Shown: one piece after another, positions 2,664 through 25,592 of the stretch
Layout of the letters: the number at the start of each line of letters is the position of its first letter
Numbering within the stretch: position 1 is the stretch's first letter
NCBI GenBank assembly: GCA_052139735.1
Contig: JBKQWB010000050.1
Coordinates: forward strand, 8,337 to 72,336
Direction: 5' to 3'
Origin: Smithella sp.
Lineage (GTDB): Bacteria; Desulfobacterota; Syntrophia; Syntrophales; Smithellaceae
Length of the DNA stretch: 64,000 bases
Position numbers and translations under genes: made by a program
The notes under the pieces: generated by a model
What the model was told of the DNA's origin: nothing
The model's database searches: none
The model's input: the letters and a program-made list of their open reading frames with translations, nothing else

Positions 2664-4508
2664 TCATGCGTCGGCCGCAATCCGCAGAGCATCGGTGAGT
2701 CCCGATTGACGGGAAATGCGTCTGGAAATCGCCTTATTCAACAAATCTTCACCAGCCCATATATCCACATCTTCGCCGGCACGCGTAATTCCTGTATAAA
2801 TAAGTTCTCTCGTTATAAACGAGACATCGCGGCCGGATAAAACGAGCAGGACTTTTTTAAATTCCGATCCCTGACTTTTATGGACAGTCATAGCCCAGGC
2901 AGTTTCATATTGAGGCAAGCCTGACGGTAAATATTTTCTCACCGTATTTTGCTCGTCAAGGAAAAATACCCGCAACTGATTATTTTCTTCAGGGTCCTTC
3001 AGGACAATGCCTACATCGCCGTTAAATAAACGCAACCGGTAATCATTTTGCAAAATCATAACCGGCATTCCCTCATAAAAATTTTCCCGCGATTTAATGA
3101 GTCCGGCATCCCTGAGAACTTTCTCCACATAAAAATTTATTCTTTCCATACCCCAGCTTCCCACGCGCAAAGCGCATAGAATACGGAATTTATCGAAAAT
3201 ATTAAAAATATTTTCCGGAATAACTTCACCGGAAGTTGCCGCTTCCATGTACTGCCTGTAATTTTCAACAACGACTTCGCCAAAATGTTTCAATAATTTT
3301 ACGCTTTCGGTTATTTCTGTCCAATGAATATCTGTATATTTTCCCGAGCGCAGCAATTCCAGTGATTCCTGAGGCTTGCCGTTTTTAACATCCTGACTCA
3401 AAAGGCCAATGCCGCCATTCTCCGGGAAGCGGTAATTTTTTTGCAGGTAAATAATATTATCCTGAATTCCCGCGGATAATTTACCGGATTGAACCTCTTC
3501 ACCGGATAAAGAAGCAATCTGCCGGGCAAATTCAGGAGAAAAAATGCCGGGAGAGCCGTGAGAGCAAATATCACCTAAAACGACTCCGGCTTCAACCGAC
3601 GCTAACTGATCTTTATCTCCCAGTAAAATTAAACAGGCCCCCGAAGGCAAGGCGGTAATCAATTTTGCCAGAAGAGGCAAATCCACCATCGAGGCCTCAT
3701 CGATTACAACAAGGTCATAAGGCAAATGATTTTTTCTATTGAACCGGAAATAAGGCGAATTACTGATAGAACCCAAAAGCCGATGAATTGTTTGCGCCGT
3801 ACAGGGTATCATCTCTTTGACCGACGCTGGACAATTTAATTTTTCCTTCATTTTATTGACCGATTCCTGCAGGCGCGCGGCAGCCTTTCCGGTAGGCGCA
3901 GTCAGAGCAATCCGCAAAGGTCGGCCGCCGGCATCCAGAACCAAAGCCATAATTTTTGTAATTGCCGTTGTTTTTCCTGTCCCCGGACTGCCGCTGATCA
4001 CAAGAAAATTTTTCAACAGTGCGGCAACGGCGGCAACTTTCTGCCAGTTGGTCTTCCCTTCGGAATTTTCATTAAAATACAGTTGCAATTTTTTTTGAAG
4101 TTCGGATTTATCCGATTTTATTTCATGATTGCCGGAAATGCGAAGCGTAATATATTCAGCTACATCTTTTTCATATTGCCAGTAGCGCTGCAAATAAAGG
4201 CGTCCGTTTTCGTCCAGGATTAAAGGCTTAAAATCACCGGGCTCTCCCACGCAGGGCGATGATTTCAGAGAAGCAAGCCATGACTGCAATGGCGGACATT
4301 CTATGATGTTTTCCCCGTCTTCACTTCTAAATACAATTTTCCCGGCATGATCGTTTAGATCAAGAAAGATATGTCCTTCTCTTACGCATCTGCTGACCAG
4401 CGAAGCCGCCAGAAACAATTCTTCCCTGTTCGCCTGACTGAAAGATGAAATAAAATTTCCGAAATGATTATCTATCGGGGAAAAAAATTTATTAAAAGTA
4501 TTTTCCAT
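2664..4508 (-). CDS. recD: Exodeoxyribonuclease V alpha subunit (RecD-type SF1 helicase)
   Basis: 614 aa. Walker A GSPGTGKTT, Walker B VVIDEASMVD, and C-terminal TVHKSQGSE plus YTGITRA motifs of the RecD family. Confidence 0.85.
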   Translation of the reverse strand: MENTFNKFFSPIDNHFGNFISSFSQANREELFLAASLVSRCVREGHIFLDLNDHAGKIVFRSEDGENIIECPPLQSWLASLKSSPCVGEPGDFKPLILDENGRLYLQRYWQYEKDVAEYITLRISGNHEIKSDKSELQKKLQLYFNENSEGKTNWQKVAAVAALLKNFLVISGSPGTGKTTAITKIMALVLDAGGRPLRIALTAPTGKAAARLQESVNKMKEKLNCPASVKEMIPCTAQTIHRLLGSISNSPYFRFNRKNHLPYDLVVIDEASMVDLPLLAKLITALPSGACLILLGDKDQLASVEAGVVLGDICSHGSPGIFSPEFARQIASLSGEEVQSGKLSAGIQDNIIYLQKNYRFPENGGIGLLSQDVKNGKPQESLELLRSGKYTDIHWTEITESVKLLKHFGEVVVENYRQYMEAATSGEVIPENIFNIFDKFRILCALRVGSWGMERINFYVEKVLRDAGLIKSRENFYEGMPVMILQNDYRLRLFNGDVGIVLKDPEENNQLRVFFLDEQNTVRKYLPSGLPQYETAWAMTVHKSQGSEFKKVLLVLSGRDVSFITRELIYTGITRAGEDVDIWAGEDLLNKAISRRISRQSGLTDALRIAADA

Positions 4509-4605
4509 ATTCTTTTTAATGATGCCAGACAGCCTTTAAAGGATAATGCGACGGCGATGTGGAGGCTCCGCAGCCGTATATAAACAGATTATAACATTAC
4601 CGCCT

Positions 4606-5745
4606 TTATTTATTTTCTAAATCATTTAATTCCATTTTCAGGGACAGCAGCGCAAGCATGTCCTTCAAGGAAATAATGCCCTCTAACTGATCCCCACTAA
4701 CAACCAGCAAACGGCTATTACCTGTGCGATTCATGATCTCCAATGCTTTATTGGCATCTTCCTCCGGTCCAATTGTTGTTTCTTCATTACAGGGCAGAGC
4801 AACCGCTCCTACCGTGTTTCGCGTCCATTCTTCCCGGGGAATTGATGCTATCTGTTTCACAAAAATGCAGCCTGTTAACCTGCCAAAAGAAAGCACAGGG
4901 TACGCCTGGAAATGGTGCACATACACATAGTCTCTGATAAATTCTTCCAGTGATATAGAACGCGGCACGGTCACAGGATTTTTAACCATCAGATCTTTTA
5001 CTTTTTTTGTATCAAAAAGACTGTGAACTAAAAGCTTCTTATAGGAAATCTGCGCTGCCGAGCGGACAAACAGGCCTATTAAAAACCACCATAAACCATT
5101 CACATAATTTCCCCTGACTATATAAATGATTCCCATAATAATTAATAGAAGTCCAAAACCGGAACCCATCTGCGCGGATACATCAGTTGACCAGCGTAAA
5201 TCTTTTTTCCATTTCCACAGCGCCGACCGCAATATTCTTCCGCCATCCAGAGGAAAAGCCGGAATCAAATTAAAAGCCGCCAGAATAATGTTTGACCAGG
5301 TCAAATAATCTAAAACACCATTGACAGCCATCGGCCAGCCGCTTTTTTCTCCAAAATTGCGTAGTAAAAAAAAGAAAAAACTGAGGACACAACTGGCAAG
5401 CGGACCGACAATCGCAATCATAAATTCAGCTTTGGGATGAGGAGGCTCGTTTTCCATCTGAGCAACGCCGCCAAAAATAAAGAGCGTTATTCCTTTTATG
5501 GATAGCCCGTAATGTCTGGCCATCAGAGAATGAGTCAATTCATGAATAATAATTGATGCAAAAAGTCCGGCCGCGCCGGCCGCGCCCATCCACCAGTAAG
5601 CTTCAGGGGAAAGGCTTTTATAATATTCAGGAAAAAGGCCGCTGGCCAATGTCCAGGTTAGTAAAGCCGCCAGAAGCAACCAACTTATGTCAACTTTTAT
5701 TTCAAATCCAAATACTTTAAAAAGACTTGCCGTCCGGCCAAACAT
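4606..5745 (-). CDS. Site-2 protease family (M50) zinc metalloprotease with a C-terminal CBS pair
   Basis: 379 aa. HELTH (HExxH) lies in a TM helix, followed by NLIPAFPLDGGRI (LDG motif) and a CBS-like tail (VTVPRSISLEEF..., LEGIISLKDM). Confidence 0.8.
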   Translation of the reverse strand: MFGRTASLFKVFGFEIKVDISWLLLAALLTWTLASGLFPEYYKSLSPEAYWWMGAAGAAGLFASIIIHELTHSLMARHYGLSIKGITLFIFGGVAQMENEPPHPKAEFMIAIVGPLASCVLSFFFFLLRNFGEKSGWPMAVNGVLDYLTWSNIILAAFNLIPAFPLDGGRILRSALWKWKKDLRWSTDVSAQMGSGFGLLLIIMGIIYIVRGNYVNGLWWFLIGLFVRSAAQISYKKLLVHSLFDTKKVKDLMVKNPVTVPRSISLEEFIRDYVYVHHFQAYPVLSFGRLTGCIFVKQIASIPREEWTRNTVGAVALPCNEETTIGPEEDANKALEIMNRTGNSRLLVVSGDQLEGIISLKDMLALLSLKMELNDLENK

Positions 5746-9165: not shown

Positions 9166-10305
9166 ATGAAAACAAAAATTACCGAATTATTCGGGATTGA
9201 ATATCCGGTTATTCTGCCCGGCATGAGCTGGATAAGCGTGCCGGAACTTGTTGCCGCGGTATGCAACGCCGGAGGAATCGGTTATCTGGCCACCGGCCCT
9301 CTAAGCCCGGATAAAACGAGACAATCGATCAGACGAATAAGAGAGCTTACCGATAGGCCTTTCGGAGTGGGAGCCACTCTTTTAATGCCGGGAGCTGTTG
9401 AAAACGCTCTGGCAGCCATTGAGGAAAAAGTTCCCGTTCTAAATATATCTCTTGGCAAGGGCGAGAATCTGATAAAAAAAGTACACGCGTACAACGGCAA
9501 AGTGATAAGCACAGTGACCACTGTAGCCCACGCGCTGGCGGCGGAAAAATCCGGGGCAGACGCTCTGCAGGTGACAGGTTATGAAGCTGCGGCTCATGGA
9601 AGTCAGGTTACGACCATGGTTTTGGTCCCCGCGATAGTGGACGCGGTAAAAATACCCATTGTAGCGATAGGTGGAATCGCTGACGGCAGAGGTATGGCCG
9701 CAGCTTTCGCTCTGGGAGCCGAAGGTGTGGGAATGGGCACAAGACTTTCCATCACAAAGGAAAGTCCTGTTCATCATTATACCAAGAAAAAGCAGTTGGA
9801 ATGCGGGGCGGAAGACACCATCTATTCCAATAGATTTGACGCTCTGTATTGCAGAATTTTAAAAACCCCTTCTGCCGAAAAGGCAATTAAGCAAGGCCGT
9901 AATATTCCCAAAGGACTTATTGCCTCGTTTGCCATTGCCAAATCATTAAATCTTTCCTGGATAAAACTGGCTACATCCATTTTATCCGGCCCTCAGGGCG
10001 AAAAAGCGGAAAAGCCTGATAATTTTGCGGCAAAAACAAATACCGGGTCAAAAGCAAAAAATAATAAATCATTGATCAGCGCAATGCTCAAAGGCTCGAA
10101 GATGGGAATGAATCTGGCGCATATGGCTCAGGCTTATGAAACCATAAAAGAAGCAACCGAGAATGGTAATCTTGAAAAAGGCGTATATCTTTCCGGTCAG
10201 GTTCAGGGAATCATCCGCGACATTCCGACCGTGGCGGAGGTCATTAATCGAACCGTTGAGGAATTCATTAAAATTCAAAAAGATATGGCGTGCAAAATAA
10301 CCTGA
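9166..10305 (+). CDS. Nitronate monooxygenase / FabK-like FMN oxidoreductase (NMO family)
   Basis: 379 aa. The N-terminus ITELFGIEYPVILPGMSWISVPELVAAVCNAGGIGYLA and the IPIVAIGGIADGRG motif are typical of the NMO family. Confidence 0.8.
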   Translation: MKTKITELFGIEYPVILPGMSWISVPELVAAVCNAGGIGYLATGPLSPDKTRQSIRRIRELTDRPFGVGATLLMPGAVENALAAIEEKVPVLNISLGKGENLIKKVHAYNGKVISTVTTVAHALAAEKSGADALQVTGYEAAAHGSQVTTMVLVPAIVDAVKIPIVAIGGIADGRGMAAAFALGAEGVGMGTRLSITKESPVHHYTKKKQLECGAEDTIYSNRFDALYCRILKTPSAEKAIKQGRNIPKGLIASFAIAKSLNLSWIKLATSILSGPQGEKAEKPDNFAAKTNTGSKAKNNKSLISAMLKGSKMGMNLAHMAQAYETIKEATENGNLEKGVYLSGQVQGIIRDIPTVAEVINRTVEEFIKIQKDMACKIT

Positions 10306-10346
10306 ACATATAGCGTGCTAATCTATACTTAAATAATTTTGTAATA

Positions 10347-10550
10347 ATGCCGTTGGATTTTAAAGGATAACGAGGCGGCAAGGAGGAGGAACCGCAGGCG
10401 TATTGTGATCCACGCCATTATGGCGCGGATCATCGGTAAGGAAATGATCTATTCATATTGTGTCCCCTTCGGGGATACACTCCCGTATCTAATACGTTGA
10501 GGAAGCCGACGACGATGCCAACAAAGTTAGCCTTTAAAATCCAACGGCAT
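10347..10550. repeat. 204-bp element with 20-bp perfect terminal inverted repeats (ATGCCGTTGGATTTTAAAGG) enclosing a hairpin-rich 164-nt core; function unknown (structured RNA or MITE-like)
   Basis: Arms at 10347-10366 and 10531-10550, extending to 24 nt with 1 mismatch. Internal hairpins at 10407-10431 and 10460-10480, the latter with a C(UUCG)G tetraloop. Confidence 0.8.
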
Positions 10551-14113: not shown

Positions 14114-14190
<77 letters not shown>

Positions 14191-14200
14191 ATACAAAATC

Positions 14201-14233
14201 AATGGGTTAGGAGAAATCCTAACCCATTTTTTT
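14201..14233 (+). terminator. Rho-independent terminator after tRNA-fMet
   Basis: AATGGGTTAGGA-GAAA-TCCTAACCCATT hairpin followed by TTTTT. Confidence 0.8.
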
Positions 14234-14750
14234 GTGTGCTACCCAATGAACAATAAATATAGAACATTTCTTGTCAAACTATTTACAAATTTCTCCTACT
14301 TTGTTGTCATAACTTTACAACAAAGCTGACTTTATGTACTCCTATCATTAATAAGTAACTCCATCGTTTTTCATTACTTAATATTACATTATTACATTGT
14401 GAAAACAAACAGTTACTACCATTTATTTGCAACACATGGAACCTTGATTATAGTGCTACGGGTTTCTTTCTGCGCATGAAGGAACAGTTTCCGTGGAAAT
14501 TTGGAATTTTTAACCTGGAGTAAAGCCCAAATTTAAAGCGACCGTGTGACTTGAACAATGCAGAACTTCCATTGAGTAATCAGAAACCTTACAGTCCTTC
14601 TGTCTCCCCCTGTAGAGAAAATTCATAGCAACGCATTTTTCAAGGTGTATGGCAGCTTACAACCAGTAATAAGGCGGGACTACAATTTGTAATAAACACA
14701 ATTTACGCCCGACAACTATCCCCATCGGCAAAAATTTTATTAATATTTCA

Positions 14751-14779
14751 TTGACATACAAATCCGATTTTCTTATGCT
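14751..14779 (+). promoter_or_regulatory. Putative sigma70-like promoter upstream of the cas operon (TTGACA-N17-TATGCT)
   Basis: Read directly; it lies about 270 nt upstream of the cas3 ATG in an AT-rich non-coding stretch. Confidence 0.35.
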
Positions 14780-14937
14780 TCCTACGGCGAGAAGCAATAT
14801 CTTATAAAAAGTATAACATTGTGGGAAGCAGTAGCGCTGAAAAATCGTTTTTTAATGGTGCCACTGTCGTCACACCCAATCCAGTTTTATCATAAGTTAT
14901 TTTGATAATTAAACTATAGTGAACAGGAACCGTGTTC

Positions 14938-15039
14938 ATGATCGATCAATATTTCGCCCATACCTTTCCCGGAAAACCACCTGCCGATTGGCAGCCGCTG
15001 GAACAACATCTAAAAGAAACAGCAGAAAAGGTTAAATAG
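14938..15039 (+). pseudogene. Relic 5' end of a second cas3 (33 codons, then stop)
   Basis: It translates to MIDQYFAHTFPGKPPADWQPLEQHLKETAEKVK*. It shares the (Y/F)AH(S/T)...L..H.KETA pattern with the intact Cas3 N-terminus (MTFYAHSENNFKESHLLSNHSKETATIA) that starts 7 nt downstream. Confidence 0.6.
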
Positions 15040-15045
15040 TGCTCT

Positions 15046-17223
15046 ATGACTTTTTACGCGCATTCAGAAAACAATTTTAAAGAAAGTCATCTACTATCTA
15101 ATCATTCAAAAGAGACAGCAACGATTGCGAAGTCTTTTGCTTGTAACGAAATCTATAAAGCAATATTCTATCTGACAGGTCTATTACATGATCTTGGAAA
15201 ATATCAGATGCCGTTCCAAAACTACCTAAAAAATGGTGGTGTGCGTGGCAGCGTTCCACATGCTTCTTGGGGGGCAGGATATGCCCGCTGCAAAGGTATG
15301 CTGGAAACATCTATCGTGATTGATGGCCATCATAAGGGCATCCCTGACAATTCTGCATGGAAGGGTGACACGGAACCATTCAAGCGCAATGAAGTCGACG
15401 GATTTGAAAACGTGCTTGGCGCTTTTATCGAAGATAACAGCTTCGATGAAAACATCTTTAATAAAGACATAATATCAGAAATACCAAAAACATCATCACA
15501 ACGGGAAGTATTTATCAGATATTTATTCAGTGCCTTGACGGATAGTGATTGGCTTTCTACTGAAAAGCATTTCAACAAGGATGCTTCCGCCATGCGTGTC
15601 TGCGCGCAGCTTGCTATTGATGAAATGACATGCAAATTAGAGAAGGCCTTTTCCGAAAAATCCACAGATGGTGATATTAACCGTATGCGGAATGAAGCGC
15701 GCCAGCAGGTGCTCCAAAAAGCCGGTTTGAGTTGTGGATTTTATTCGTTGACCCTTCCAACCGGTATGGGAAAAACGCTTATATCTATGGCGTGGGCTTT
15801 AAAACACGCAAAGATAAATCATTTAAAACGAATAATAATTGTTCTTCCTTTCGTGAACATCATTGATCAGACAGCACAGGTATTGAAAGACATATTTGGT
15901 GAAGAATGGATATTAGAGCATCACTCCGGATTCAATGAGGATGAGGATGCAACCAAGGATACCGAAGAAAGATATTCTCTTTTGGAGCAAAGAAAGAAAC
16001 TGGCCTGCGAGAATTGGAACTATCCAGTCATCTTGACGACTACTGTCCAATTCTTTGAGTCACTCTTCAGCAATAGACCATCAAGATGCCGGAAGATTCA
16101 CAATATTGCCGAGTCTGTGGTCATATTTGATGAAGTTCAAACGCTACCAAAGGAAATAATCTTACCCACCCTTCAGATGCTGAAAGATGTTCAGACAGTA
16201 ATGAGAACATCTTTTCTGTTCTGCACAGCGACACAACCCGCATTTGAAAAAAGAAAGGGGTTTGATGGTATCGATACCATATATCCTTTAATGGACAACC
16301 CTACCGAGATATACAGGGAAACAAAGCGTGTTAAATACAATTTATTGAATAATCTGGAACCTATAAATTCCAGTGATCTTCTAAATGCAGTTGTGAATGA
16401 AGCAACTTCGACGCTCGTCATATTCAACACTAAAAAGGCCGCATTGGAATTCTATAATTCTGCCGAAAATAGTGTGCAATGGGAAAGCAAGTATCATTTA
16501 TCGACGGCTATGTGTCCTGCACACAGAAAGAATGTCATAAAGAATGTCCGGGCTGATTTGGAAGCAGGGCGTAAAATCATTGTGTCTTCTACACAGTTGA
16601 TTGAGGCAGGTGTGGATTTTGATTTTCCGGTAGTGTTTCGCGCTATGGCTCCTCTTGAATCGATTATCCAGTCGGCAGGGCGCTGCAATCGGGAAAACAA
16701 ATTAGGCAAATCCGGTGGCAGAGTATTTCTATTCAAGATTATCGATGGCGGCATGCCGGATAAGACTTATGCTGCATGCGCAAGTCATGCAGAAGAGTTT
16801 CTTAGAACAGACATTGAACAGCTTCACAATCATCAATCATTCAATAAATACTATGCCCAAGTAGTTCAACTTTACGTTGACCCAGACAAACACAATATAA
16901 ATGCAACACGAAAAGCCTTTAATTTTAAAACGGTCAACGACGGTTATAGAATAATCAAGAATGCTACCGAAGGATTGTATATGTATAACTACAGCGATGA
17001 AAGCAGACAATTACGTCGTACGCTCGAATACAAGGAATTTTTATCTAAGGATGATTACCGGAAGATGCAGCCTTTTATAGTGCCCGTTTATAAGTCTTTT
17101 ATTATTCAAAATGGTTCAATGTGTAAAACAATGCCGCAAGGATTTATGGTTTGGTATGGCAATTATGATCAGCAAACAGGTATTTCAGTTGCACCCATTG
17201 ATGCGGATAAATTAATCGTATAA
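15046..17223 (+). CDS. cas3: CRISPR-associated nuclease/helicase Cas3 (type I-C)
   Basis: 725 aa. HD domain (LLHDLGKY, IDGHHKG, LTDSDW) fused to an SF2 helicase (LPTGMGKT, IFDEVQ, SAGRCNRE); first gene of the cas operon. Confidence 0.95.
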   Translation: MTFYAHSENNFKESHLLSNHSKETATIAKSFACNEIYKAIFYLTGLLHDLGKYQMPFQNYLKNGGVRGSVPHASWGAGYARCKGMLETSIVIDGHHKGIPDNSAWKGDTEPFKRNEVDGFENVLGAFIEDNSFDENIFNKDIISEIPKTSSQREVFIRYLFSALTDSDWLSTEKHFNKDASAMRVCAQLAIDEMTCKLEKAFSEKSTDGDINRMRNEARQQVLQKAGLSCGFYSLTLPTGMGKTLISMAWALKHAKINHLKRIIIVLPFVNIIDQTAQVLKDIFGEEWILEHHSGFNEDEDATKDTEERYSLLEQRKKLACENWNYPVILTTTVQFFESLFSNRPSRCRKIHNIAESVVIFDEVQTLPKEIILPTLQMLKDVQTVMRTSFLFCTATQPAFEKRKGFDGIDTIYPLMDNPTEIYRETKRVKYNLLNNLEPINSSDLLNAVVNEATSTLVIFNTKKAALEFYNSAENSVQWESKYHLSTAMCPAHRKNVIKNVRADLEAGRKIIVSSTQLIEAGVDFDFPVVFRAMAPLESIIQSAGRCNRENKLGKSGGRVFLFKIIDGGMPDKTYAACASHAEEFLRTDIEQLHNHQSFNKYYAQVVQLYVDPDKHNINATRKAFNFKTVNDGYRIIKNATEGLYMYNYSDESRQLRRTLEYKEFLSKDDYRKMQPFIVPVYKSFIIQNGSMCKTMPQGFMVWYGNYDQQTGISVAPIDADKLIV

Positions 17224-17236
17224 TCAGGAGGTGAGT

Positions 17237-18004
17237 ATGCTTGATAGTCGAATCGTAAGCGTAAAAGTAACAGGGGGCTTTGCCTGTTTTACTAGGCCTG
17301 ACCTGAAAGTTGAACGTATGACTTACCCATGTATGACGCCGTCGGCAGCGCGCGGTATTCTTGATTCCATTTTGTGGAAGCCAGAGTTTCAGTGGTATGT
17401 CAGAAGAATAATTGTTTTAAATCCCATCAGGTTTGCTTCGATCAAGCGAAATGAAATTAATACTAAGCAAGGCAAAACACCAATTGTTGTCGATGAAGTC
17501 GATATCGCGGGTAAACCAAAGTATCGCGCGCAAAGAAATAGTGTCACTTTAAGGGATGTAGCTTACGTCATTGAAGCATCAATTTATCAGAAACAATTAT
17601 CGGATAGAAACAAACCTGAAAAATATATTGGCCAAAAAGGCATTGACGCGGATCATGACGGCATATTTATCCGCCGTGTTAAAAAAGGGCAATGCTGGCG
17701 AAGGCCATATTTAGGCACACGTGAATTTGCCGCAGAGTTCATGGAGCCTCATGGCAAGGAACAACCAATAAAAGAAACAATACCCATTGGAAGCATGTTG
17801 TTTGATATATTCTATGATGCGAATGGTAAGCCTGAACCAGTATTCTTTCATGATGTAGCAATCCGCAATGGCGTTTTGAACTGCGAAGTACCGGAGAATG
17901 ACAAAATGATGCAGTCAAGCCATATGCAGCCACCAATAGACAGCGAAACTTCTTCCTTAATCTATGCATTTAACCAACAGGAAGAAAAGGAGGCTGCCTT
18001 ATGA
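17237..18004 (+). CDS. cas5: Cas5c (Cas5d) pre-crRNA-processing subunit, type I-C
   Basis: VKVTGGFACFTRPDLKVERMTYPCMTPSAARGILDSILWKPEF is the Cas5 I-C signature. ATG at 17237 lies 5 nt after AGGAGG; the track GTG at 17231 overlaps the RBS. Confidence 0.9.
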   Translation: MLDSRIVSVKVTGGFACFTRPDLKVERMTYPCMTPSAARGILDSILWKPEFQWYVRRIIVLNPIRFASIKRNEINTKQGKTPIVVDEVDIAGKPKYRAQRNSVTLRDVAYVIEASIYQKQLSDRNKPEKYIGQKGIDADHDGIFIRRVKKGQCWRRPYLGTREFAAEFMEPHGKEQPIKETIPIGSMLFDIFYDANGKPEPVFFHDVAIRNGVLNCEVPENDKMMQSSHMQPPIDSETSSLIYAFNQQEEKEAAL

Positions 18005-19773
18005 TCAAGGAATTAAGCGAACTAGGTAAAACGCTTCGTGCGCAGAAGGGTGACAATGAATGGATACATGATGCATTAAAACCTGAACCAATTTCAATGG
18101 AACTAATTATTACTGAGGATGGCAGTTTTCAAAGTTTCAATCTGATTGAAAAGAAACAGACTACTGCTGAAGCCATAACTGCAAAGAAAGGGAAAGCTCG
18201 TCTGTTGCTTGATAAAGCCGAAGAAGTCCTTTGCTATGGAGGTGCAGCATCAAAGAGTAAACACGACCTCTTTTTGAAAAAACTTGATGAGTATCGGGAT
18301 TTATCCGAACTGTCACCGATTATGAATTTTTATAAGGACAACAAGACCAATGGGGTGGAAATGGCATTGCAGGCTTTTGAGATATCCATCCCTGATGAAA
18401 AGAACAGGAAAGGCAATATCGGGTTTCGTATTCAATCCGAAGGGTGTCGCATACATGAGAAACCTGAAGTATTAAGGCTAATCATAACAAAGTACGAAAC
18501 CATGCAGAAAGACCTATTGACGAGTAAAAAGAAGAAATGTGCCATTTGTGGACAGAGTAAATATCCTGTGGAAGATATTCCGCATGGGATGATCAAGAAA
18601 GTGCCTGATGGTCAATCTAGCGGCAGCGCACTCGTTTCCTATAATGAATCGGCTTTTGAATCATATGGATTAGCGGGTAATGAAAATTCAGCCATATGCA
18701 CAAACTGCGCAAAAACTTACGTAGAGGGATTGAATTGGCTTCTATCAGCAGGTAACGAAGTTATTATCAAAACCAAAAAAGGAAAAGAAAAAACCTCATA
18801 CCGTTATACAAATCGAAGAAATTTCGGTTCAGATACGGCGATGGTATTTTGGACACGCCAAAACAGTTATATTAATGAAATAGATCAACTTGAAGCGCCA
18901 AATCCCGATGATGTGAGCAGATTGATTGAATCAGTAAATGCAGGCAAAGAAAAAGACAGCCGGTATTTAGAACCCGATCAGTTCTATTCATGCACGTTAT
19001 CCGGCGCTGCTGCACGCATTGCTGTGAGGGATTGGATTGAAACCAGTTTGTATGATTTTAGAAAATCAATAGCACAATGGTTTAAAGATATTTCCGTCAT
19101 GGAATATGATAGTGATTTAAAAATGTTAAAAACGCGTTATGCCGGATTATACAATCTGGCAAGAAGCTCGCAAAATACTAAAAATGATAAAGACGTGTCG
19201 CTGTCACGTACCGCTGCATATTTATGGAATTCGGCAATCAAAAACACACCACTACCTTTGTGGTTGCTAACGAAGGTTCTTCAGCGTGCGCGTTTAGATG
19301 AATATGGTGTTACTGCTGAACGTGCATCTTTGATTAAACTAATTTTAAATCGAAATAATAAAGGAGGTGATTTTATGGTTACAGAAAAAATGGAAGAAGG
19401 TCATAAACCAATTGCCTATGTTTGTGGGCAAATTTTCGCAAAATTGGAAAGTATCCAGTACGCTGCATTGGGGGATAGAAACGCAGGAATTCGGGAAAGA
19501 TATTTTACATATGCCATGACATCACCCGCTGCTGCATTTGGCCGTTTGTTTAATTTGCATTCAAAGCATTTTACTAAGCTTAGAAATGAAAAACCTGGGT
19601 TGGCAATTAATCTCGACAAAGAGCTTCAGCTATTATGCAAAGAGGTTGACATAAATAGTTTCCCGACCACTTTCATATTGGAGGAACAAGGCCAGTTTGC
19701 TATCGGCTATTATCATCAAAAACAGATGCAATTTAGCGGAGCTAAATCAAAAGAAAATAAGGAGGAAGAGTAA
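18001..19773 (+). CDS. cas8c: Cas8c (Csd1) large subunit, type I-C
   Basis: 590 aa. ATGA overlap with cas5, a position between cas5 and cas7, and the Cys pairs CAICGQ...CTNCAK are typical of Csd1. Confidence 0.9.
   Translation: MIKELSELGKTLRAQKGDNEWIHDALKPEPISMELIITEDGSFQSFNLIEKKQTTAEAITAKKGKARLLLDKAEEVLCYGGAASKSKHDLFLKKLDEYRDLSELSPIMNFYKDNKTNGVEMALQAFEISIPDEKNRKGNIGFRIQSEGCRIHEKPEVLRLIITKYETMQKDLLTSKKKKCAICGQSKYPVEDIPHGMIKKVPDGQSSGSALVSYNESAFESYGLAGNENSAICTNCAKTYVEGLNWLLSAGNEVIIKTKKGKEKTSYRYTNRRNFGSDTAMVFWTRQNSYINEIDQLEAPNPDDVSRLIESVNAGKEKDSRYLEPDQFYSCTLSGAAARIAVRDWIETSLYDFRKSIAQWFKDISVMEYDSDLKMLKTRYAGLYNLARSSQNTKNDKDVSLSRTAAYLWNSAIKNTPLPLWLLTKVLQRARLDEYGVTAERASLIKLILNRNNKGGDFMVTEKMEEGHKPIAYVCGQIFAKLESIQYAALGDRNAGIRERYFTYAMTSPAAAFGRLFNLHSKHFTKLRNEKPGLAINLDKELQLLCKEVDINSFPTTFILEEQGQFAIGYYHQKQMQFSGAKSKENKEEE
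19375..19773 (+). CDS. cas11: Cas11c small subunit from an internal in-frame start within cas8c
   Basis: AAAGGAGGTGA lies 4 nt (TTTT) upstream of the in-frame ATG at 19375 (codon 459), giving a 132-aa product MVTEKMEEGHKPIAYVCGQIF.... Type I-C systems are known to translate Cas11 internally from cas8c. Confidence 0.6.
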   Translation: MVTEKMEEGHKPIAYVCGQIFAKLESIQYAALGDRNAGIRERYFTYAMTSPAAAFGRLFNLHSKHFTKLRNEKPGLAINLDKELQLLCKEVDINSFPTTFILEEQGQFAIGYYHQKQMQFSGAKSKENKEEE

Positions 19774-19774
19774 A

Positions 19775-20644
19775 ATGAGGGAGCCAATAAAAAATCGGTA
19801 TGACTTTGTGTTTCTATTTGATGTTAAGGACGGCAATCCTAACGGTGATCCTGATCAGATAAATTTACCACGCGCTGATGCTGAAGACCAGCATGGCTTG
19901 GTAACGGATGTTTGTATTAAAAGGAAGGTAAGAAATTATGTAATGCTGGAAAGGGAACTAAAGACACCCTATGACATATTTATCAGACAGGAACAGATTC
20001 TAAACAAAATTATTGATTCAGCGGAAGGTAAAAACATAACACAACGACAAGATAGTTTATGTGAAAATTATTTTGATATAAGAACCTTTGGCGCTGTGCT
20101 CTCGACTGGTGATAAAGGTGCGGGAACAATTCGAGGGCCCGTGCAATTTACATTTTCACGTTCAGAAGATCGTATATATCAGGCCGAACACTCTATCACG
20201 CGTTGTGCAGTTACAACGGAGGAAGATGCCAAGAAACAAGAAAAAAGAGAGTTTGCATCTACGTTTGGCAGGAAATCAACAGTGCCATATGCGCTTTATA
20301 GGATGCACGGCTTTATTTCCGCTATTGATGCTAAGAAAACAAAGTTCTCTGAAGACGACCTTAAGTTACTTTGGAAATCGCTAATAAATGCTTTTGAAAA
20401 CGATCGTGCTGCCGCAAGAGGCGAGATGAACCCCATAAAGTTGGTTATATTTAAACACGACAGTCATTTGGGGAATGAATTATCAGGAAGATTATTTGAC
20501 CGTGTGACGGTTAAAAAAAATTCAGCCCTGCCCAGAGGAAAAGAAGATTATACGATCACTGTTAATAAGGACAATCTTCCATCTGATGATAAGAAAAAAC
20601 CATTGATTGAAATTAAAGAATGGCCGGAAGAAAAGATATTCTAA
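19775..20644 (+). CDS. cas7: Cas7c (Csd2) backbone subunit, type I-C
   Basis: ATG at 19775 follows an AAGGAGGA RBS. MREPIKNRYDFVFLFDVKDGNPNGDPD and IRTFGAV motifs are Csd2-like. The track start at 19697 overlaps cas8c. Confidence 0.9.
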   Translation: MREPIKNRYDFVFLFDVKDGNPNGDPDQINLPRADAEDQHGLVTDVCIKRKVRNYVMLERELKTPYDIFIRQEQILNKIIDSAEGKNITQRQDSLCENYFDIRTFGAVLSTGDKGAGTIRGPVQFTFSRSEDRIYQAEHSITRCAVTTEEDAKKQEKREFASTFGRKSTVPYALYRMHGFISAIDAKKTKFSEDDLKLLWKSLINAFENDRAAARGEMNPIKLVIFKHDSHLGNELSGRLFDRVTVKKNSALPRGKEDYTITVNKDNLPSDDKKKPLIEIKEWPEEKIF

Positions 20645-20678
20645 AACTTGTCGAACCGCCAAATGGCGCAAAACCGTC

Positions 20679-20720
20679 AATTAGGTAATAACTATTCAAT
20701 TAGGTAATAAATTAGGTAAT
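20679..20720 (+). repeat. Direct repeat copy A (42 bp) made of three (A)ATTAGGTAAT(AA) cores; its last core overlaps the cas4 ATG
   Basis: AATTAGGTAATAACTATTCAATTAGGTAATAAATTAGGTAAT; 39/42 identical to 22453-22494. Confidence 0.95.
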
Positions 20721-21369
20721 GACTGACGAACAGTATAACATCGACGACCTGATTCAGCTTTCCGCTTTGCAGCACTATGCTTTTTGTCCAAGGCAGTGCG
20801 CCTTGATTCATGTCGAGCAGGTCTGGGCGGAAAATCGTCTGACTGCCGAAGGACGCATCATGCATGAGCATGTGCATGAGGAAGGCGATGAATCGCGTGG
20901 TGATGTACACATCGAACGCGGCGCGTCATTGCGATCTTTGCGGTTGGGGCTAATCGGCAAATCGGATGTAGTTGAATATCACCGTCAGGCCGATGGAAGC
21001 TGGCAGGCTTTTCCGGTTGAATACAAACGAGGCAAGCCTAAGATTGATGAAAGCGATAAAATTCAGCTCTGCGCTCAGGCTCTTTGCCTGGAGGAAATGC
21101 TCAATGCCTCTATTCCCGCTGGCGCGCTTTTCTATGGCAAAACCAGGCGGCGTCTTGACGTTGACTTTAATGAAACGCTAAGACAGGAAATGGAAGCTGC
21201 GGCAATTAAAACGCATGAATTGATTGATGCTGGTATTACACCTGCGCCGGTCTATGCCAAACGTTGTGAAAGCTGTTCGCTGATAGCCGAATGTATGCCG
21301 AAGACTATGCAGAAAAAAAGATCAGTTGAAAGTTACCTGAAACGAATGTTGGATGAAATAGAAAATTAA
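20719..21369 (+). CDS. cas4: Cas4 (RecB-like nuclease with a 4Fe-4S cluster)
   Basis: 216 aa. N-terminal Cys (HYAFCPRQCAL) plus C-terminal CESCSLIAEC ligands; DVVEY...VEYKRGK nuclease motif. Confidence 0.9.
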   Translation: MTDEQYNIDDLIQLSALQHYAFCPRQCALIHVEQVWAENRLTAEGRIMHEHVHEEGDESRGDVHIERGASLRSLRLGLIGKSDVVEYHRQADGSWQAFPVEYKRGKPKIDESDKIQLCAQALCLEEMLNASIPAGALFYGKTRRRLDVDFNETLRQEMEAAAIKTHELIDAGITPAPVYAKRCESCSLIAECMPKTMQKKRSVESYLKRMLDEIEN

Positions 21370-21411
21370 CGCAGAGAGCGTAAAAAAAAACGAAGGAGTG
21401 ATTCTACAAAT

Positions 21412-22458
21412 ATGATGACATTAAAAAAGTTTTGCTTGGAACTTGACGCGGTTCCAATCACAACGTCATGGTATCTCACGGAGATAAGTGAGGCAAAAGG
21501 AAGGCAACAGCTTTATACAAAACAATCGCCGCAGAGATTGAAGTCTCTAAAAGAACATGCCCTCATTGAGAGTGCGGTTTCGTCCAATCGTATTGAGGGC
21601 GTGGAGGTTGATAACAAGCGTGTGGGCACTGTTGTTTTCGGCAAATCACTTCTTCATGATCGCTCCGAGGAGGAGATCAGAGGCTATAGAAATGCGTTAA
21701 AACTTATTCATGATAATGGGGCAAAGTTATCCATAACGCAGGAAACAATCAAGAAATTGCATGGGCTGACACGCGGCGAAATTTGGGATGCCGGAAAATA
21801 TAAAGAAAAGAATAGCGATATCATTGAAAAACATCGGAACGGCAAATCTACTGTAAGATTCAAAACTATTACGGCAGACAGGACTACTGCGTGTATGAGG
21901 CAGTTGGTTGATTCCTGGCAGGCGTCCCTAAAATCATCGAAGATTTCTCCGCTGATAGTTCTGGCGGCATTCAATCTTGATTTCTTGTGCATTCATCCTT
22001 TCCGTGATGGAAACGGCAGGGTGTCCCGTCTTTTGCTGTTGTTGCAATGTTATCATTTGGGATTTGAGGTCGGCAGATTTATAAGCCTTGAACGAATAAT
22101 CGAACAGAACAAAGAAAGATACTATGAGACATTGAAACTAAGTTCAGAAAGATGGCATGAGGGGAAACATGATCCCTGGCACTATATCAACTATATTTGT
22201 TTTGTTCTCCGAAGCGCCTATAAGGAATTTGAAGAAAGACTGGATATGTTGCCGCAGCCGCGGGGCGAAAAAACGGCAATGATTCACGATGCGATAAAAG
22301 GATATGCAGGCGCATTCAGTGTCGCTGATATACTGCAAAAATATCCCGGAATTAGCATTGATCTGGTTCGTAAAACTTTGAAGGATATGCAGGCTGAAAG
22401 TATTGTTGAATGTATTGGACGTGGCCGTAGCGCAAAATGGCGGAAAAAATTAAATTAG
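21412..22458 (+). CDS. Fic-family protein (class II, with an N-terminal inhibitory helix) and a C-terminal winged-helix domain, embedded between cas4 and cas1
   Basis: 348 aa. Fic motif HPFRDGNGRVSR; SNRIEG matches the (S/T)xxxE(G/N) alpha-inh motif about 140 aa upstream; the tail ESIVECIGRGRSAKWRKK is wHTH-like. It has its own AAGGAG RBS at 21393. Confidence 0.9.
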   Translation: MMTLKKFCLELDAVPITTSWYLTEISEAKGRQQLYTKQSPQRLKSLKEHALIESAVSSNRIEGVEVDNKRVGTVVFGKSLLHDRSEEEIRGYRNALKLIHDNGAKLSITQETIKKLHGLTRGEIWDAGKYKEKNSDIIEKHRNGKSTVRFKTITADRTTACMRQLVDSWQASLKSSKISPLIVLAAFNLDFLCIHPFRDGNGRVSRLLLLLQCYHLGFEVGRFISLERIIEQNKERYYETLKLSSERWHEGKHDPWHYINYICFVLRSAYKEFEERLDMLPQPRGEKTAMIHDAIKGYAGAFSVADILQKYPGISIDLVRKTLKDMQAESIVECIGRGRSAKWRKKLN

Positions 22459-22494
22459 GTAATAACGATTATATTAGGTAATAAATTAGGTAAT
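22453..22494 (+). repeat. Direct repeat copy B (42 bp); it contains the fic stop codon and is followed by one more ATAGGTAAT core (22506-22514) abutting the cas1 ATG
   Basis: AATTAGGTAATAACGATTATATTAGGTAATAAATTAGGTAAT; 39/42 identical to 20679-20720. Confidence 0.95.
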
Positions 22495-22515
22495 AGGCCG
22501 TCGGTATAGGTAATT

Positions 22516-23547
22516 ATGAAAAAACTTCTTAATACTTTGTATGTAACGACACAGGGCGCGTATCTTGCCAAGGAAGGCGAAACTGTTGTGGTCAAGGTTA
22601 ATCAGGAAATCCGATTGCGTGTGCCAGTGCACACTATCGGCGGTATTGTCTGTTTTGGCAACGTATCTTGCAGTCCGTTTTTGATGGGATTTTGCGGTGA
22701 AAACGGAGTCGGCATCAGCTTTTTATCCGAGTATGGCCGTTTTCTGGCGCGTGTGCAGGGACCTGTGTCCGGCAATGTCCTATTGCGCCGCGAACAATAC
22801 CGAAAAGCGGATGATCGGGAATATTCTGCGCAGATGGCTAAATCGTTCGTTACCGGCAAGATTGCCAACTGCCGGACAGTGCTCCAGCGGGTGCTAAGAG
22901 ATCATGCCCAAAAACTGGATGAAGATACGCTTCGCCGAAGCATTTCTGACCTGAGCCATTCGCTTGCATCACTTGATTTGAATCAGTCACTCGATACCGT
23001 ACGCGGCTTGGAAGGCGACGCTGCGCACACCTATTTCAGCGTCTTTGATCATTTGATTATCGCGCAAAAAGAAAGTTTTAATTTTCAGGAGCGCAATCGT
23101 CGCCCGCCGTTGGATAATGTTAATTGCCTGCTTTCTTTTATTTACATGCTGCTCATGCACGATATTCGTTCCGCGCTGGAATCAGTCGGCCTTGACCCGG
23201 CAGTCGGTTTTCTTCATCGGGATAGACCCGGCAGACCCAGCCTGGCATTGGACATGATGGAAGAATTCCGGCCATTTCTAGCGGATCGCCTGACACTTTC
23301 TCTGATCAATCTGCGGCAGGTGCAGGATAAAGGTTTTAATAAAACGGCAGCGGGTGCGGTTGCGATGAACGATGAAACAAGAAGAACACTGCTTGTGGCC
23401 TATCAGGAAAGAAAGCAGGAAGAAATTTATCATCCTTTTTTGGATGAAAAAGTAACAATCGGATTGTTGTTTCATGTGCAGGCATCGCTTATGGCGCGCT
23501 GTCTGCGCGGTGATCTGGATGGCTATCCACCGTTTATCTGGAAATAA
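22516..23547 (+). CDS. cas1: Cas1 integrase (type I-C)
   Basis: 343 aa. LNTLYVTTQGAYL N-terminus, GLEGDAAHTYF, and HRDRPGRPSLALDMMEEFRP catalytic-region motifs. Confidence 0.95.
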   Translation: MKKLLNTLYVTTQGAYLAKEGETVVVKVNQEIRLRVPVHTIGGIVCFGNVSCSPFLMGFCGENGVGISFLSEYGRFLARVQGPVSGNVLLRREQYRKADDREYSAQMAKSFVTGKIANCRTVLQRVLRDHAQKLDEDTLRRSISDLSHSLASLDLNQSLDTVRGLEGDAAHTYFSVFDHLIIAQKESFNFQERNRRPPLDNVNCLLSFIYMLLMHDIRSALESVGLDPAVGFLHRDRPGRPSLALDMMEEFRPFLADRLTLSLINLRQVQDKGFNKTAAGAVAMNDETRRTLLVAYQERKQEEIYHPFLDEKVTIGLLFHVQASLMARCLRGDLDGYPPFIWK

Positions 23548-23559
23548 GGAGGAATAAAA

Positions 23560-23850
23560 TTGCTTGTTCTGGTCAGTTACGATGTCGCCATGCAGGACGA
23601 AAGAGGGCCGAAGCGTTTGCGTAAGGTAGCCAAGACCTGTCAGAATTACGGTCAGCGGGTTCAGTATTCTGTTTTTGAATGTATTGTTGATCCCGCGCAA
23701 TGGACTGTTTTAAGAGAACGGCTGATTGATGCAATAAATCCTGAAGAAGATAGTCTGCGATTTTATTTTCTTGGTTCTAATTGGCGCAAGCGTGTGGAAC
23801 ATATTGGCGCGAAAAAGTCAATTGATCAGGAAGGTCCGTTGATCGTGTAA
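23560..23850 (+). CDS. cas2: Cas2
   Basis: 96 aa. MLVLVSYDV start (TTG, 6 nt after AAGGAGG), YGQRVQYSVFEC core, immediately upstream of the leader and array. Confidence 0.9.
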   Translation: MLVLVSYDVAMQDERGPKRLRKVAKTCQNYGQRVQYSVFECIVDPAQWTVLRERLIDAINPEEDSLRFYFLGSNWRKRVEHIGAKKSIDQEGPLIV

Positions 23851-24034
23851 AAGCTATCCGCGAACCTGAAGCTGACAAGAGTCAGTAAATAGCTTCGCGG
23901 ACTAAGTAATCTATTTGAATTATTGATATTTTTTAAATGATCTTTGAAAACTGAAGATAAATGATTTTTTAAAATCAGCGATTCGCGAAATATGAAGATA
24001 TTAAATAGTATTAACAATTAATTAGAAGTAAACA
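23851..24034 (+). promoter_or_regulatory. CRISPR leader (AT-rich, 184 bp)
   Basis: AT-rich stretch between the cas2 stop and the first repeat. It contains three TTCGCG(A/G)A-like motifs. Confidence 0.7.

Positions 24035-25592
<1,558 letters not shown>

Follow-up and report, generated by a model that had tools for sequence, protein, structure and literature searches.

A 64,000-nucleotide stretch of Smithella sp. DNA (assembly GCA_052139735.1, contig JBKQWB010000050.1, positions 8,337 to 72,336 of the forward strand; this whole stretch is called the window below) carries a type I-C CRISPR-Cas locus in which a fic gene lies between cas4 and cas1 and two nearly identical direct repeats bracket the cas4-fic pair. 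What these repeats are, how they came to stand on both sides of cas4-fic, and what they have to do with the Fic protein are the questions that the locus raises. Each copy is an instance of a cis element specific to the Fic family. The best explanation overall, to which we assign a probability of about 0.6, is that this Fic-specific element is present here as one relic and one native copy and would serve as a docking array for the winged helix-turn-helix, or wHTH, domain of Fic.

A preliminary description of this DNA had reported a pair of 42-mers, and the pair holds: the sequences at 20679-20720 (copy A) and 22453-22494 (copy B), both on the + strand, agree at 39 of 42 positions, and all 3 mismatches fall in the 6-nt spacer of their common pattern, AATTAGGTAATAAC-N6-ATTAGGTAATAAATTAGGTAAT. 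As also described there, copy A ends in the ATG of cas4 (20719) and copy B contains the stop codon of fic (TAG, 22456-22458). Each copy carries three cores, at 20681-20689, 20700-20708 and 20712-20720 in copy A and at 22455-22463, 22474-22482 and 22486-22494 in copy B, with start-to-start distances of 19 and 12 bp. The exact core TTAGGTAAT occurs six times in the 64 kb, always on the + strand and always within copy A or B, against 0.31 occurrences expected, and more than two matches were obtained in 0 of 100 shuffles. A seventh core, ATAGGTAAT (22506-22514), had been claimed as well; it does lie 1 nt before the cas1 ATG, but it is a one-mismatch match, and this class is not enriched in the window (18 found, 14.9 expected). 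It stands as a fourth, degenerate core in the linker to cas1 (22495-22515), which moves with the resident fic lineage and is found in the related loci L104 and L013 too.

The repeat finder extended the pair to 69 nt (20652-20720 and 22426-22494, 84% identity). The extra 27 nt of copy B are the final fic codons (..GRGRSAKWRKKLN-stop), so that the complete copy B comprises the last 11 fic codons and the native triple core. In copy A, the corresponding 27 nt start a few bases past the cas7 stop and read ..CRTAKWRKTVN-stop in the same register; copy A is therefore a relic fic tail plus cores and no bare repeat. The relic itself, the 3' end of an older fic (20652-20684, R-T-A-K-W-R-K-T-V-N-stop in the fic-tail register), is non-coding now. 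Over the 69 nt, the two copies differ at 0 of 27 core positions and at 11 of 42 non-core positions (Fisher p = 0.005).

The same element recurs in the Fic family, which is large and strongly conserved and counts 7,786 proteins at E ≤ 1e-20, many of them about 70% identical. A scan of one genome per species returned 593 Fic relatives, and the best 80 of them (54-72% identity), which were examined, belong to Desulfobacterota, Nitrospirota, Acidobacteriota, Planctomycetota, Verrucomicrobiota, Nitrosomonadales and other groups. Three direct 9-bp cores lie at or next to the fic stop codon (within -45..+75) in 64 of 83 non-redundant loci from many phyla, whereas such a triple is present in 3 of 1580 control windows from the same loci. 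The repeats are thus tied to fic and are not the generic intergenic repeat that the preliminary description had considered as an alternative. The start-to-start spacing of 19/20 and 12 bp is kept family-wide, as in the window, which gives the repeated cores at fixed spacing of an operator or iteron array. A single core variant is used at each locus, and the variants differ among clades: TTAGGTAAT, TTGGGTAAT, (A/G)AGGGTAAT, CTAGGTATT, GT(G/A)AGGGTATT and GGTGGTAAT. Many clades also have an inverted core overlapping core 1 (for example AAGGGTAATACCCTT, AAGGGTAATTACCCTT or ATTGGGTAATACCCAAT), which is absent from the clade of the window. The position of the stop codon within the element shifts between clades, in some of which the cores themselves encode the last codons (..KGNTLKKG-stop); the conserved entity is therefore DNA and not a peptide.

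The boundaries of the unit are sharp. Pairs of fic genes with 80-92% nucleotide identity in differing neighbourhoods begin to be homologous 1-17 nt before the ATG and cease to be so within about 3 nt of the end of core 3. For L011/L012 (Fic 82% identical, unrelated context), the homology corresponds to window 21408-22495, beginning 4 nt upstream of the ATG and ending with core 3. All readable open reading frames (ORFs) ending in the element encode Fic-family proteins, intact or truncated; the element is missing from more distant Fic-wHTH genes (≤44% identity), which are the sole relatives from viral contigs. Among metagenome stretches with the exact 21-mer TTAGGTAATRAATTAGGTAAT, 80 of 116 were read. 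The matches not behind fic were about ten stretches of unrelated tandem repeats rich in AT, and a few solo elements with uninformative neighbourhoods (HigBA, PIN, ORF6N). A generic genome repeat was ruled out by the lack of any exact core elsewhere in the 64 kb and by the position of the 21-mer mostly behind fic in metagenomes. Several loci carry more than one element: in L051 the element of its own fic is directly succeeded by a second one of another core type, a solo triple lies 270-290 nt upstream of fic in L054, the unit of core 1 and inverted core is repeated in L076, and in L095 the entire 32-nt element is. The core strings turned up nothing in literature searches, and a triple-core element at the stop codon of Fic-wHTH genes appears to be undescribed.

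The history of the two copies can be read from the nearest relatives of the locus. In L124, which resembles the window closely in its effector genes (cas3/cas5/cas8c/cas7 90-97% identical, with cas3 at 90% and cas8c at 97%), an intact fic with its cores stands before cas4. Window 15058-20649 aligns with L124 4608-10175 at 91.7% identity and window 20658-21361 with L124 11445-12148 at 84.2%, and at the junction between them (20645-20657, + strand) the window lacks 1269 nt by a clean deletion that took a small ORF and fic, sparing the last ~33 nt of the latter. The layout cas7-fic-cores-cas4-cas1, usual among Smithella-type I-C loci, recurs in L102/L103, in L099 (Smithella sp. SCADC), in L018 and in 23 of the 80 metagenome stretches read, on at least 25 contigs. 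The relic and three intact cores before cas4, without fic, are found in L097/L098 and in L182, the third relic-bearing locus; L097/L098 have a Bro-N gene at the cas4-cas1 junction, which is held by fic in the window. L104 has the order cas7-cas4-fic-cores-cas1, its fic being 96% identical, and nothing like copy A before cas4, while L100/L101 show cas7-cas4-cas1 with an overlap of cas4 and cas1 (ATGA) and neither fic nor cores.

Because an intact fic occupies the place of copy A in about 25 loci including L124, copy A is best taken as a deletion remnant, and because each copy occurs alone in close relatives (A in L097, B in L104), the two should have separate origins. From these alignments, copy A is very probably what a deletion left of an older fic at the cas7-cas4 site, and copy B the native 3' element of the resident fic. 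In this history the older fic, about 70% identical to the present one, would have been deleted down to its last ~33 nt and the element, and copy B would have arrived with the present fic at the cas4-cas1 junction, the site filled by the Bro-N gene in other lineages. According to the preliminary description, fic-less relatives that already carry both copies would decouple the repeats from fic capture. Such relatives do carry copy A (L097/L098) but not copy B; this decouples copy A from the capture of the present fic but leaves its tie to fic as such.

The relic has been kept with unusual fidelity. Over 69 nt it is identical at 65 positions between the window and L097, while cas4 and cas1 agree at 61-66% of their 4-fold degenerate sites (binomial P = 2e-10). 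Its occurrence, in a small sample, suggests that a working cas4 downstream goes with retention of the relic: the upstream remnant in L099 precedes a cas4 fragment truncated after codon 92 and has two cores left, one of them degenerate. The retained relic is probably under purifying selection, having become part of the cas4 leader. In the window, copy A may have been co-opted additionally in this way, as the cas4 ATG inside core 3 lies four codons (12 nt) upstream of the ATG of the relatives, the ancestral start, which has become CAG here in the junction alignment; the nearest AGGT is 1 nt from the ATG. The duplication in L099 (2298-2599 of JQDQ01000121.1) comprises two cores and the first 92 cas4 codons upstream of small ORF-fic-cores-cas4; the 2.3 kb beyond it on the upstream side showed no effector cas genes.

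The protein encoded by the resident fic (21412-22458, + strand; Pfam Fic, 1e-13) is a class II Fic, a class defined by HxFx(D/E)GNGRxxR and an N-terminal (S/T)xxxE(G/N) inhibitory helix in one chain. Here these are H195-P-F-R-D-G-N-G-R-V-S-R206 and an intact inhibitory motif, S58-N-R-I-E62-G63, and the columns of both motifs are invariant in 23 family members. In the AlphaFold2 model, the C-terminal part is predicted to form a winged helix made of helices 286-296 and 304-310, a recognition helix at 316-328 and a β-hairpin wing at 332-345 (predicted local distance difference test, pLDDT, 81-90), so that the protein would have the Fic-wHTH architecture of the SoFic/CccR/CbFic2 type. Foldseek aligned the model over its full length with 8cil, 3zcn/3eqx and 7xux (CbFic2, SoFic and CccR, respectively). 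The closest solved relative is 8UQU, a structural-genomics entry from Bordetella bronchiseptica on which the literature search found no paper. Orthology with SoFic was rejected, the NCBIfam equivalog NF046030 giving 44.6 bits against a cut-off of 550; the SoFic model of PADLOC matches at 5e-32, in a library without a curated cut-off.

The type of core follows the type of winged helix. L031 and L028 are 90% identical over residues 1-285 and carry an A-type and a B-type wHTH, respectively, each with the matching cores; L041 has an N-terminus 86% identical to that of the B-type L034, yet its wHTH is A-like and its cores are CTAGGTATT. Across these two independent swaps, the core type tracks the wHTH and not the catalytic domain. 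By mutual information, the columns most informative about core type are 324 and 316, both in the predicted recognition helix (316 being its start), and 339 at the wing tip. With K, R, N, Q or H at residue 324, GGTAAT cores outnumber GGTATT cores by 42:2, and with A, G, V, F or S the ratio of GGTATT to GGTAAT cores is 11:1. The co-variation of core and DNA-binding domain seen in operators and iteron arrays is thus present, with the caveat of linkage and few events. We lean towards the cores being cognate binding sites of the Fic wHTH. Of the mechanisms raised in the preliminary description, an operator bound by this domain would be the best reading, and the comparative data strengthen it.

Several points weigh against this view. 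As neighbours on the DNA, the wHTH and the cores tend to be co-inherited regardless of function, and the core types largely follow the Fic tree, which leaves few independent events. Exceptions at residue 324 are listed for L050, L051 and L065 (R with TATT) and for L181 (N with TAAT). Known Fic-wHTH operators sit in the promoter of their own gene, while the element of the window is 3'; such a position is unusual for wHTH sites and without an established rationale. No locus-specific enrichment of cores was found in the 300 nt upstream of fic (0.24 versus 0.20 per kb), and no sigma-70-like promoter was predicted on the + strand in or near either copy. In about a third of the family loci the downstream gene is convergent or distant, which excludes the control of such a gene as the function of the whole family. 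Finally, the strong conservation of the relic could stem from recent recombination instead of selection.

Other explanations account for parts of these observations. The preliminary description had suggested that the repeats might be attL/attR-like scars of the capture of cas4-fic, or the live ends of an excisable 1.77-kb segment, and same-orientation direct repeats do flank exactly cas4-fic. This suggestion is largely refuted by the comparison of loci and retains next to no probability: copy A stands without fic in L097/L098, copy B without copy A in L104, neither copy in L100, and a fic at the position of A in L124, according to which copy A arose by deletion. Moreover, at least 25 related loci have cas4 directly after fic-cores, cas4 adjoins cas1 in L100 and L102, both copies are kept in the same layout in 21 of 21 metagenome contigs that encode the identical Fic protein, and the deletion product expected from excision, a cas7-direct repeat-cas1 junction, was found in none of the 80 stretches read (of the 116 with the 21-mer). 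A different kind of mobility would make the triple core the recombination site of a single-gene mobile fic cassette, the two copies representing successive insertions at a preferred spot. The near-identical fic homology bounded 1-17 nt before the ATG and within ~3 nt of core 3 fits such a cassette, as do solo elements without fic in toxin-antitoxin and defence islands (L121, L168, L172, L175), the stacked or duplicated elements of L051, L054, L076 and L095, and the presence of fic in many different operons, where the upstream gene is often overlapped by ATGA. An equally tight boundary would be left by selection on the minimal functional unit, however. The 5' boundary has no core or half-core, no target-site duplication was seen, and no recombinase is consistently near. 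The rearrangements themselves resemble homologous or homology-facilitated illegitimate recombination, as in the duplicated 3' ends of upstream genes in L011 and L097, the partial cas4 duplication of L099 and the fic domain swaps. We consider the cassette improbable.

It is also conceivable that in this locus the cores act independently of Fic, mainly as a leader or translation-initiation sequence for the following gene, cas4 after copy A and cas1 after copy B with its fourth core. A functional cas4 is preceded by the relic with three intact cores, and no fic is adjacent, in the window, L097/L098 and L182, and before the truncated cas4 of L099 two cores remain, one degenerate. The cores hold a Shine-Dalgarno-like AGGT. 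The ATG of cas1 (window, L104) or cas4 (L018) has a fourth core 1-4 nt ahead of it, and Bro-N inserts at the cas4-cas1 junction likewise keep a duplicated cas4 3' end before cas1. The spacing is poor, however, with AGGT 1 nt (core 3) or 13 nt (core 2) from the cas4 ATG, and a ribosome-binding site needs no three precisely spaced copies. The element occurs across the family also where no co-directional gene follows, and its GGTATT, GTGCATT and GCGTA variants are not Shine-Dalgarno-like. A mainly leader function is unlikely, though somewhat less so than the cassette. An action as RNA, be it a 3'-untranslated-region hairpin, a stabiliser, a terminator or an antitoxin-like repeat RNA, is very doubtful. 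Stems of 6-9 bp can form between the inverted core and core 1 or 2 in many clades, and the inverted core co-changes with the variant; it is absent in whole clades, however, while the direct cores and their spacing persist. The window copies have no stable fold (z = -0.63 and +1.62), and three other clades gave z = -1.76 to +0.15 versus shuffled sequences. There is no U-tract, no Rfam match was found at E ≤ 5, and Fic, unlike type III toxins, is not an RNase. A type III toxin-antitoxin repeat RNA or structured RNA family was rejected as an assignment, because the element folds no better than shuffled sequence and matches nothing in Rfam.

The docking array that we prefer has partial parallels in characterized systems. 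CccR of Yersinia pseudotuberculosis, a Fic protein with a helix-turn-helix, represses its own promoter and binds AGATAATCAT half-sites as a dimer via its C-terminal domain (PMC9755527). The window Fic shares its domain architecture (Foldseek alignment with 7xux over ~360 columns), and the half-site AGATAATCAT resembles the core AGGTAAT(A/G)A, with 6 of 7 bases matching in AGxTAAT. However, the sequence similarity is marginal (E = 1.8e-4, Fic domain only), and the operator of CccR, in its own promoter, is formed by two inverted half-sites set 26 bp apart, whereas the window element has three direct cores at the 3' end of the gene. SoFic of Shewanella oneidensis binds, as a dimer, specific DNA within 100 bp upstream of its own start codon (bioRxiv 10.64898/2026.07.09.737422). 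It is likewise a class II Fic with a wHTH, and its name also denotes a single-gene anti-phage defence family; the window Fic is no orthologue, and no 3' element has been described for SoFic. An autoregulatory promoter operator of the CccR/SoFic type was rejected for the window on the lack of upstream core enrichment and of a + strand sigma-70-like promoter in either copy. In Coxiella burnetii, DNA binding drives dimerisation of CbFic2 and switches it between AMPylase and deAMPylase (PMC10628234), a precedent for DNA as a regulator of Fic activity. CbFic2 differs in that its DNA binding is largely without sequence specificity, that it is a secreted effector targeting histones, and that no cognate site is known beside its gene.

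Among DNA elements, OmpR/PhoB-type boxes and plasmid Rep iterons resemble the array in being short head-to-tail cores about one helical turn apart that co-vary with the binding domain. They sit in promoters or origins, whereas the window array starts in or just after the coding end of its presumed binder, and its 12-bp period is longer than the usual 10-11 bp. The fic unit is also similar to an integron cassette: it is a single ORF lacking a promoter, tightly bounded at its 5' side and closed at its 3' side by a structured repeat element, and it occurs in many contexts. In contrast to integrons, it lacks the R''/L''-L'/R' architecture and a 5' core remnant, its repeats are direct, its core is GGTAAT and not GTTRRRY in most clades, and no IntI gene was noted, no systematic IntI search having been made. 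Assignment as an integron attC was rejected on the direct repeats and on the absence of GTT from the B, C, D and E core types (TTAGGT fits TTRRRY, the remaining core types do not). Attachment sites in the 3' ends of target genes likewise leave a relic of the last codons and downstream DNA apart from the intact copy; here, however, the relic lies upstream of the intact gene and was made by deletion, and no integrase-defined element stands between the copies.

In the mechanism that we propose, a Fic dimer or oligomer would dock via its C-terminal winged helix on the array adjoining its own gene. In the ancestral module, the bound Fic would sit directly before cas4; in the window, with arrays before both cas4 and cas1, a single resident Fic could act on both. 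Binding might act as a roadblock or regulator of the adaptation genes, or might provide DNA-dependent control of Fic activity as in CbFic2. That binding regulates cas4 or cas1 is a tentative proposal, rather unlikely on present evidence. By analogy with CbFic2, docking at the 3' end of its own gene that gates the enzyme is a possibility. A wider proposal is more speculative still: the Fic clade would combine a catalytic domain with a swappable unit of wHTH and cognate array, docking would gate the enzyme as a DNA tether or antitoxin and also control or guard spacer acquisition in Syntrophales type I-C systems, and alternatively or additionally the array might be the recombination site of an undescribed single-gene defence cassette.

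The locus around the repeats is a type I-C system with an array and with Pfam matches for cas3, cas5c, cas8c (Csd1), cas7, cas4, cas1 and cas2, all in one operon, the part from cas7 to the array being on the + strand. The effector part consists of cas3 (15046-17223), cas5 (17231-18004), cas8c (18001-19773) and cas7 (19697-20644; Pfam Cas_Cas7, 2.6e-92), for which gene callers on identical contigs place the start at window 19775. It is followed by cas4 (20719-21369; Pfam Cas_Cas4), the 5' leader of the resident fic (21370-21411), which has a GAAGGAG ribosome-binding site and is common to L104 and L013, and, beyond fic and copy B, by cas1 (22516-23547; Pfam Cas_Cas1, 7.8e-109), cas2 (23560-23850; Pfam CRISPR_Cas2) and a CRISPR array of 24 repeats of the 32-nt GTCGCGCCCCGCGCGGGCGCGTGGATTGAAAC, ending in ATTGAAAC (24035-25592). 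Cas4 homologues assign the locus to Smithella/Smithellaceae, and contig JBAVEP010000160.1 of GCA_049587795.1, among the 21 that encode the identical Fic, is 100% identical to window 14142-24067.

The two halves of this locus have different histories. Cas4, Cas1 and Cas2 of the window are 84-94% identical to those of L097, L099, L100 and L102, while Cas7 is 40-56% identical. In 13 loci with fic before cas4, pairwise Fic identity correlates with that of Cas4/Cas1/Cas2 (Spearman 0.63-0.72) and not with that of Cas7 (-0.23), and fic-cores-cas4-cas1-cas2 thus behaves as one long-lived module. Between the effector genes (15046-20644) and the adaptation genes (20652-23850) of the window, the break lies at the boundary of the cas7 stop and the fic relic. 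Judged from these alignments, the module recombines with unrelated effector modules, breaking at the left edge of fic or of the relic. Literature searches for a link between Fic and CRISPR adaptation found nothing, and a stable place for fic within a type I-C adaptation module appears to be undescribed. L115, L125, L132 and L139 each have a fic fragment of only about the initial 125 residues, next the cores, and after these a distant cas4-cas1-cas2 with 29-37% identity to those of the window, so that the element also fronts a different adaptation module.

Further rearrangements were observed around the same genes. The Bro-N domain gene at the cas4-cas1 junction (276 residues; disrupted in L099) is present in L097 (4634-5578), L099 (4646-5503) and L124; it is flanked by a duplicated cas4 3' end (..GATGAAACATGA), by which cas1 keeps its original upstream sequence. 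A similar type of duplication occurs in L011 (1160-1234 and 2335-2418) and L169, where the upstream gene's 3' end (..DKLVYELYGLTE[DE]EIAIV.GK-stop, a methyltransferase-like C-terminus) stands on both sides of the fic cassette, in two copies that have diverged. A small basic ORF (about 50-76 residues, ..MAQQVKKSEHSGSKKGRGAYWGRKKDAKTESNRLRRETDKNEEKPVSEKDER) ends in the ATGA that starts fic in L124 (~10190-10430) and L099 (~2747-2903); it matches nothing in Pfam, and L018 and the window lack it. In L013-L016, a segment that runs from the 3' end of cas4 through fic and its cores into the first ~62 nt of cas1 stands in a mobile-element-like context (92.9% identity over window 21290-22577), and since this fic carries pieces of cas4 and cas1, part of a CRISPR locus has moved out. 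L013 itself (4338-5618) has a fic 95% identical to that of the window, AAA_25 and HTH_17 genes upstream, and about 80 nt of the cas4 3' end. The ORF after the L013-L016 segment begins, as we take it, like a RhuM-type protein. At the other end of the locus, window ~14143 is the left edge of the region common to L001/L003; there the CRISPR-Cas locus is 96% identical and the upstream DNA differs, with housekeeping-type genes in the window (an SIS/CBS protein, a metallophosphoesterase and an arginase-family protein) and a tyrosine integrase with an AbiEi/AbiEii pair in L001/L003. Inside cas8c (19033-19059) stands TGGATTGAAAC, which equals the final 11 nt of the CRISPR repeat, and the sequence after it has 78% similarity to one repeat-spacer junction, probably by chance.

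According to the above-described analysis, ordinary evolution explains why repeats bracket cas4-fic, with the relic of a deletion on one side and a native 3' element on the other, and attL/attR sites, excision or cassette capture become matters of low priority. The cas7-cas4 and cas4-cas1 junctions are hot spots for the gain and loss of fic and Bro-N genes, which leave duplicated gene ends behind, and this is useful for annotation. The triple-core element provides a cheap and concrete handle on what the DNA-binding domains of Fic proteins recognise. Meanwhile, as fic co-diverges with cas4, cas1 and cas2 in Smithella-type I-C systems, it is a candidate accessory or regulator of spacer acquisition.

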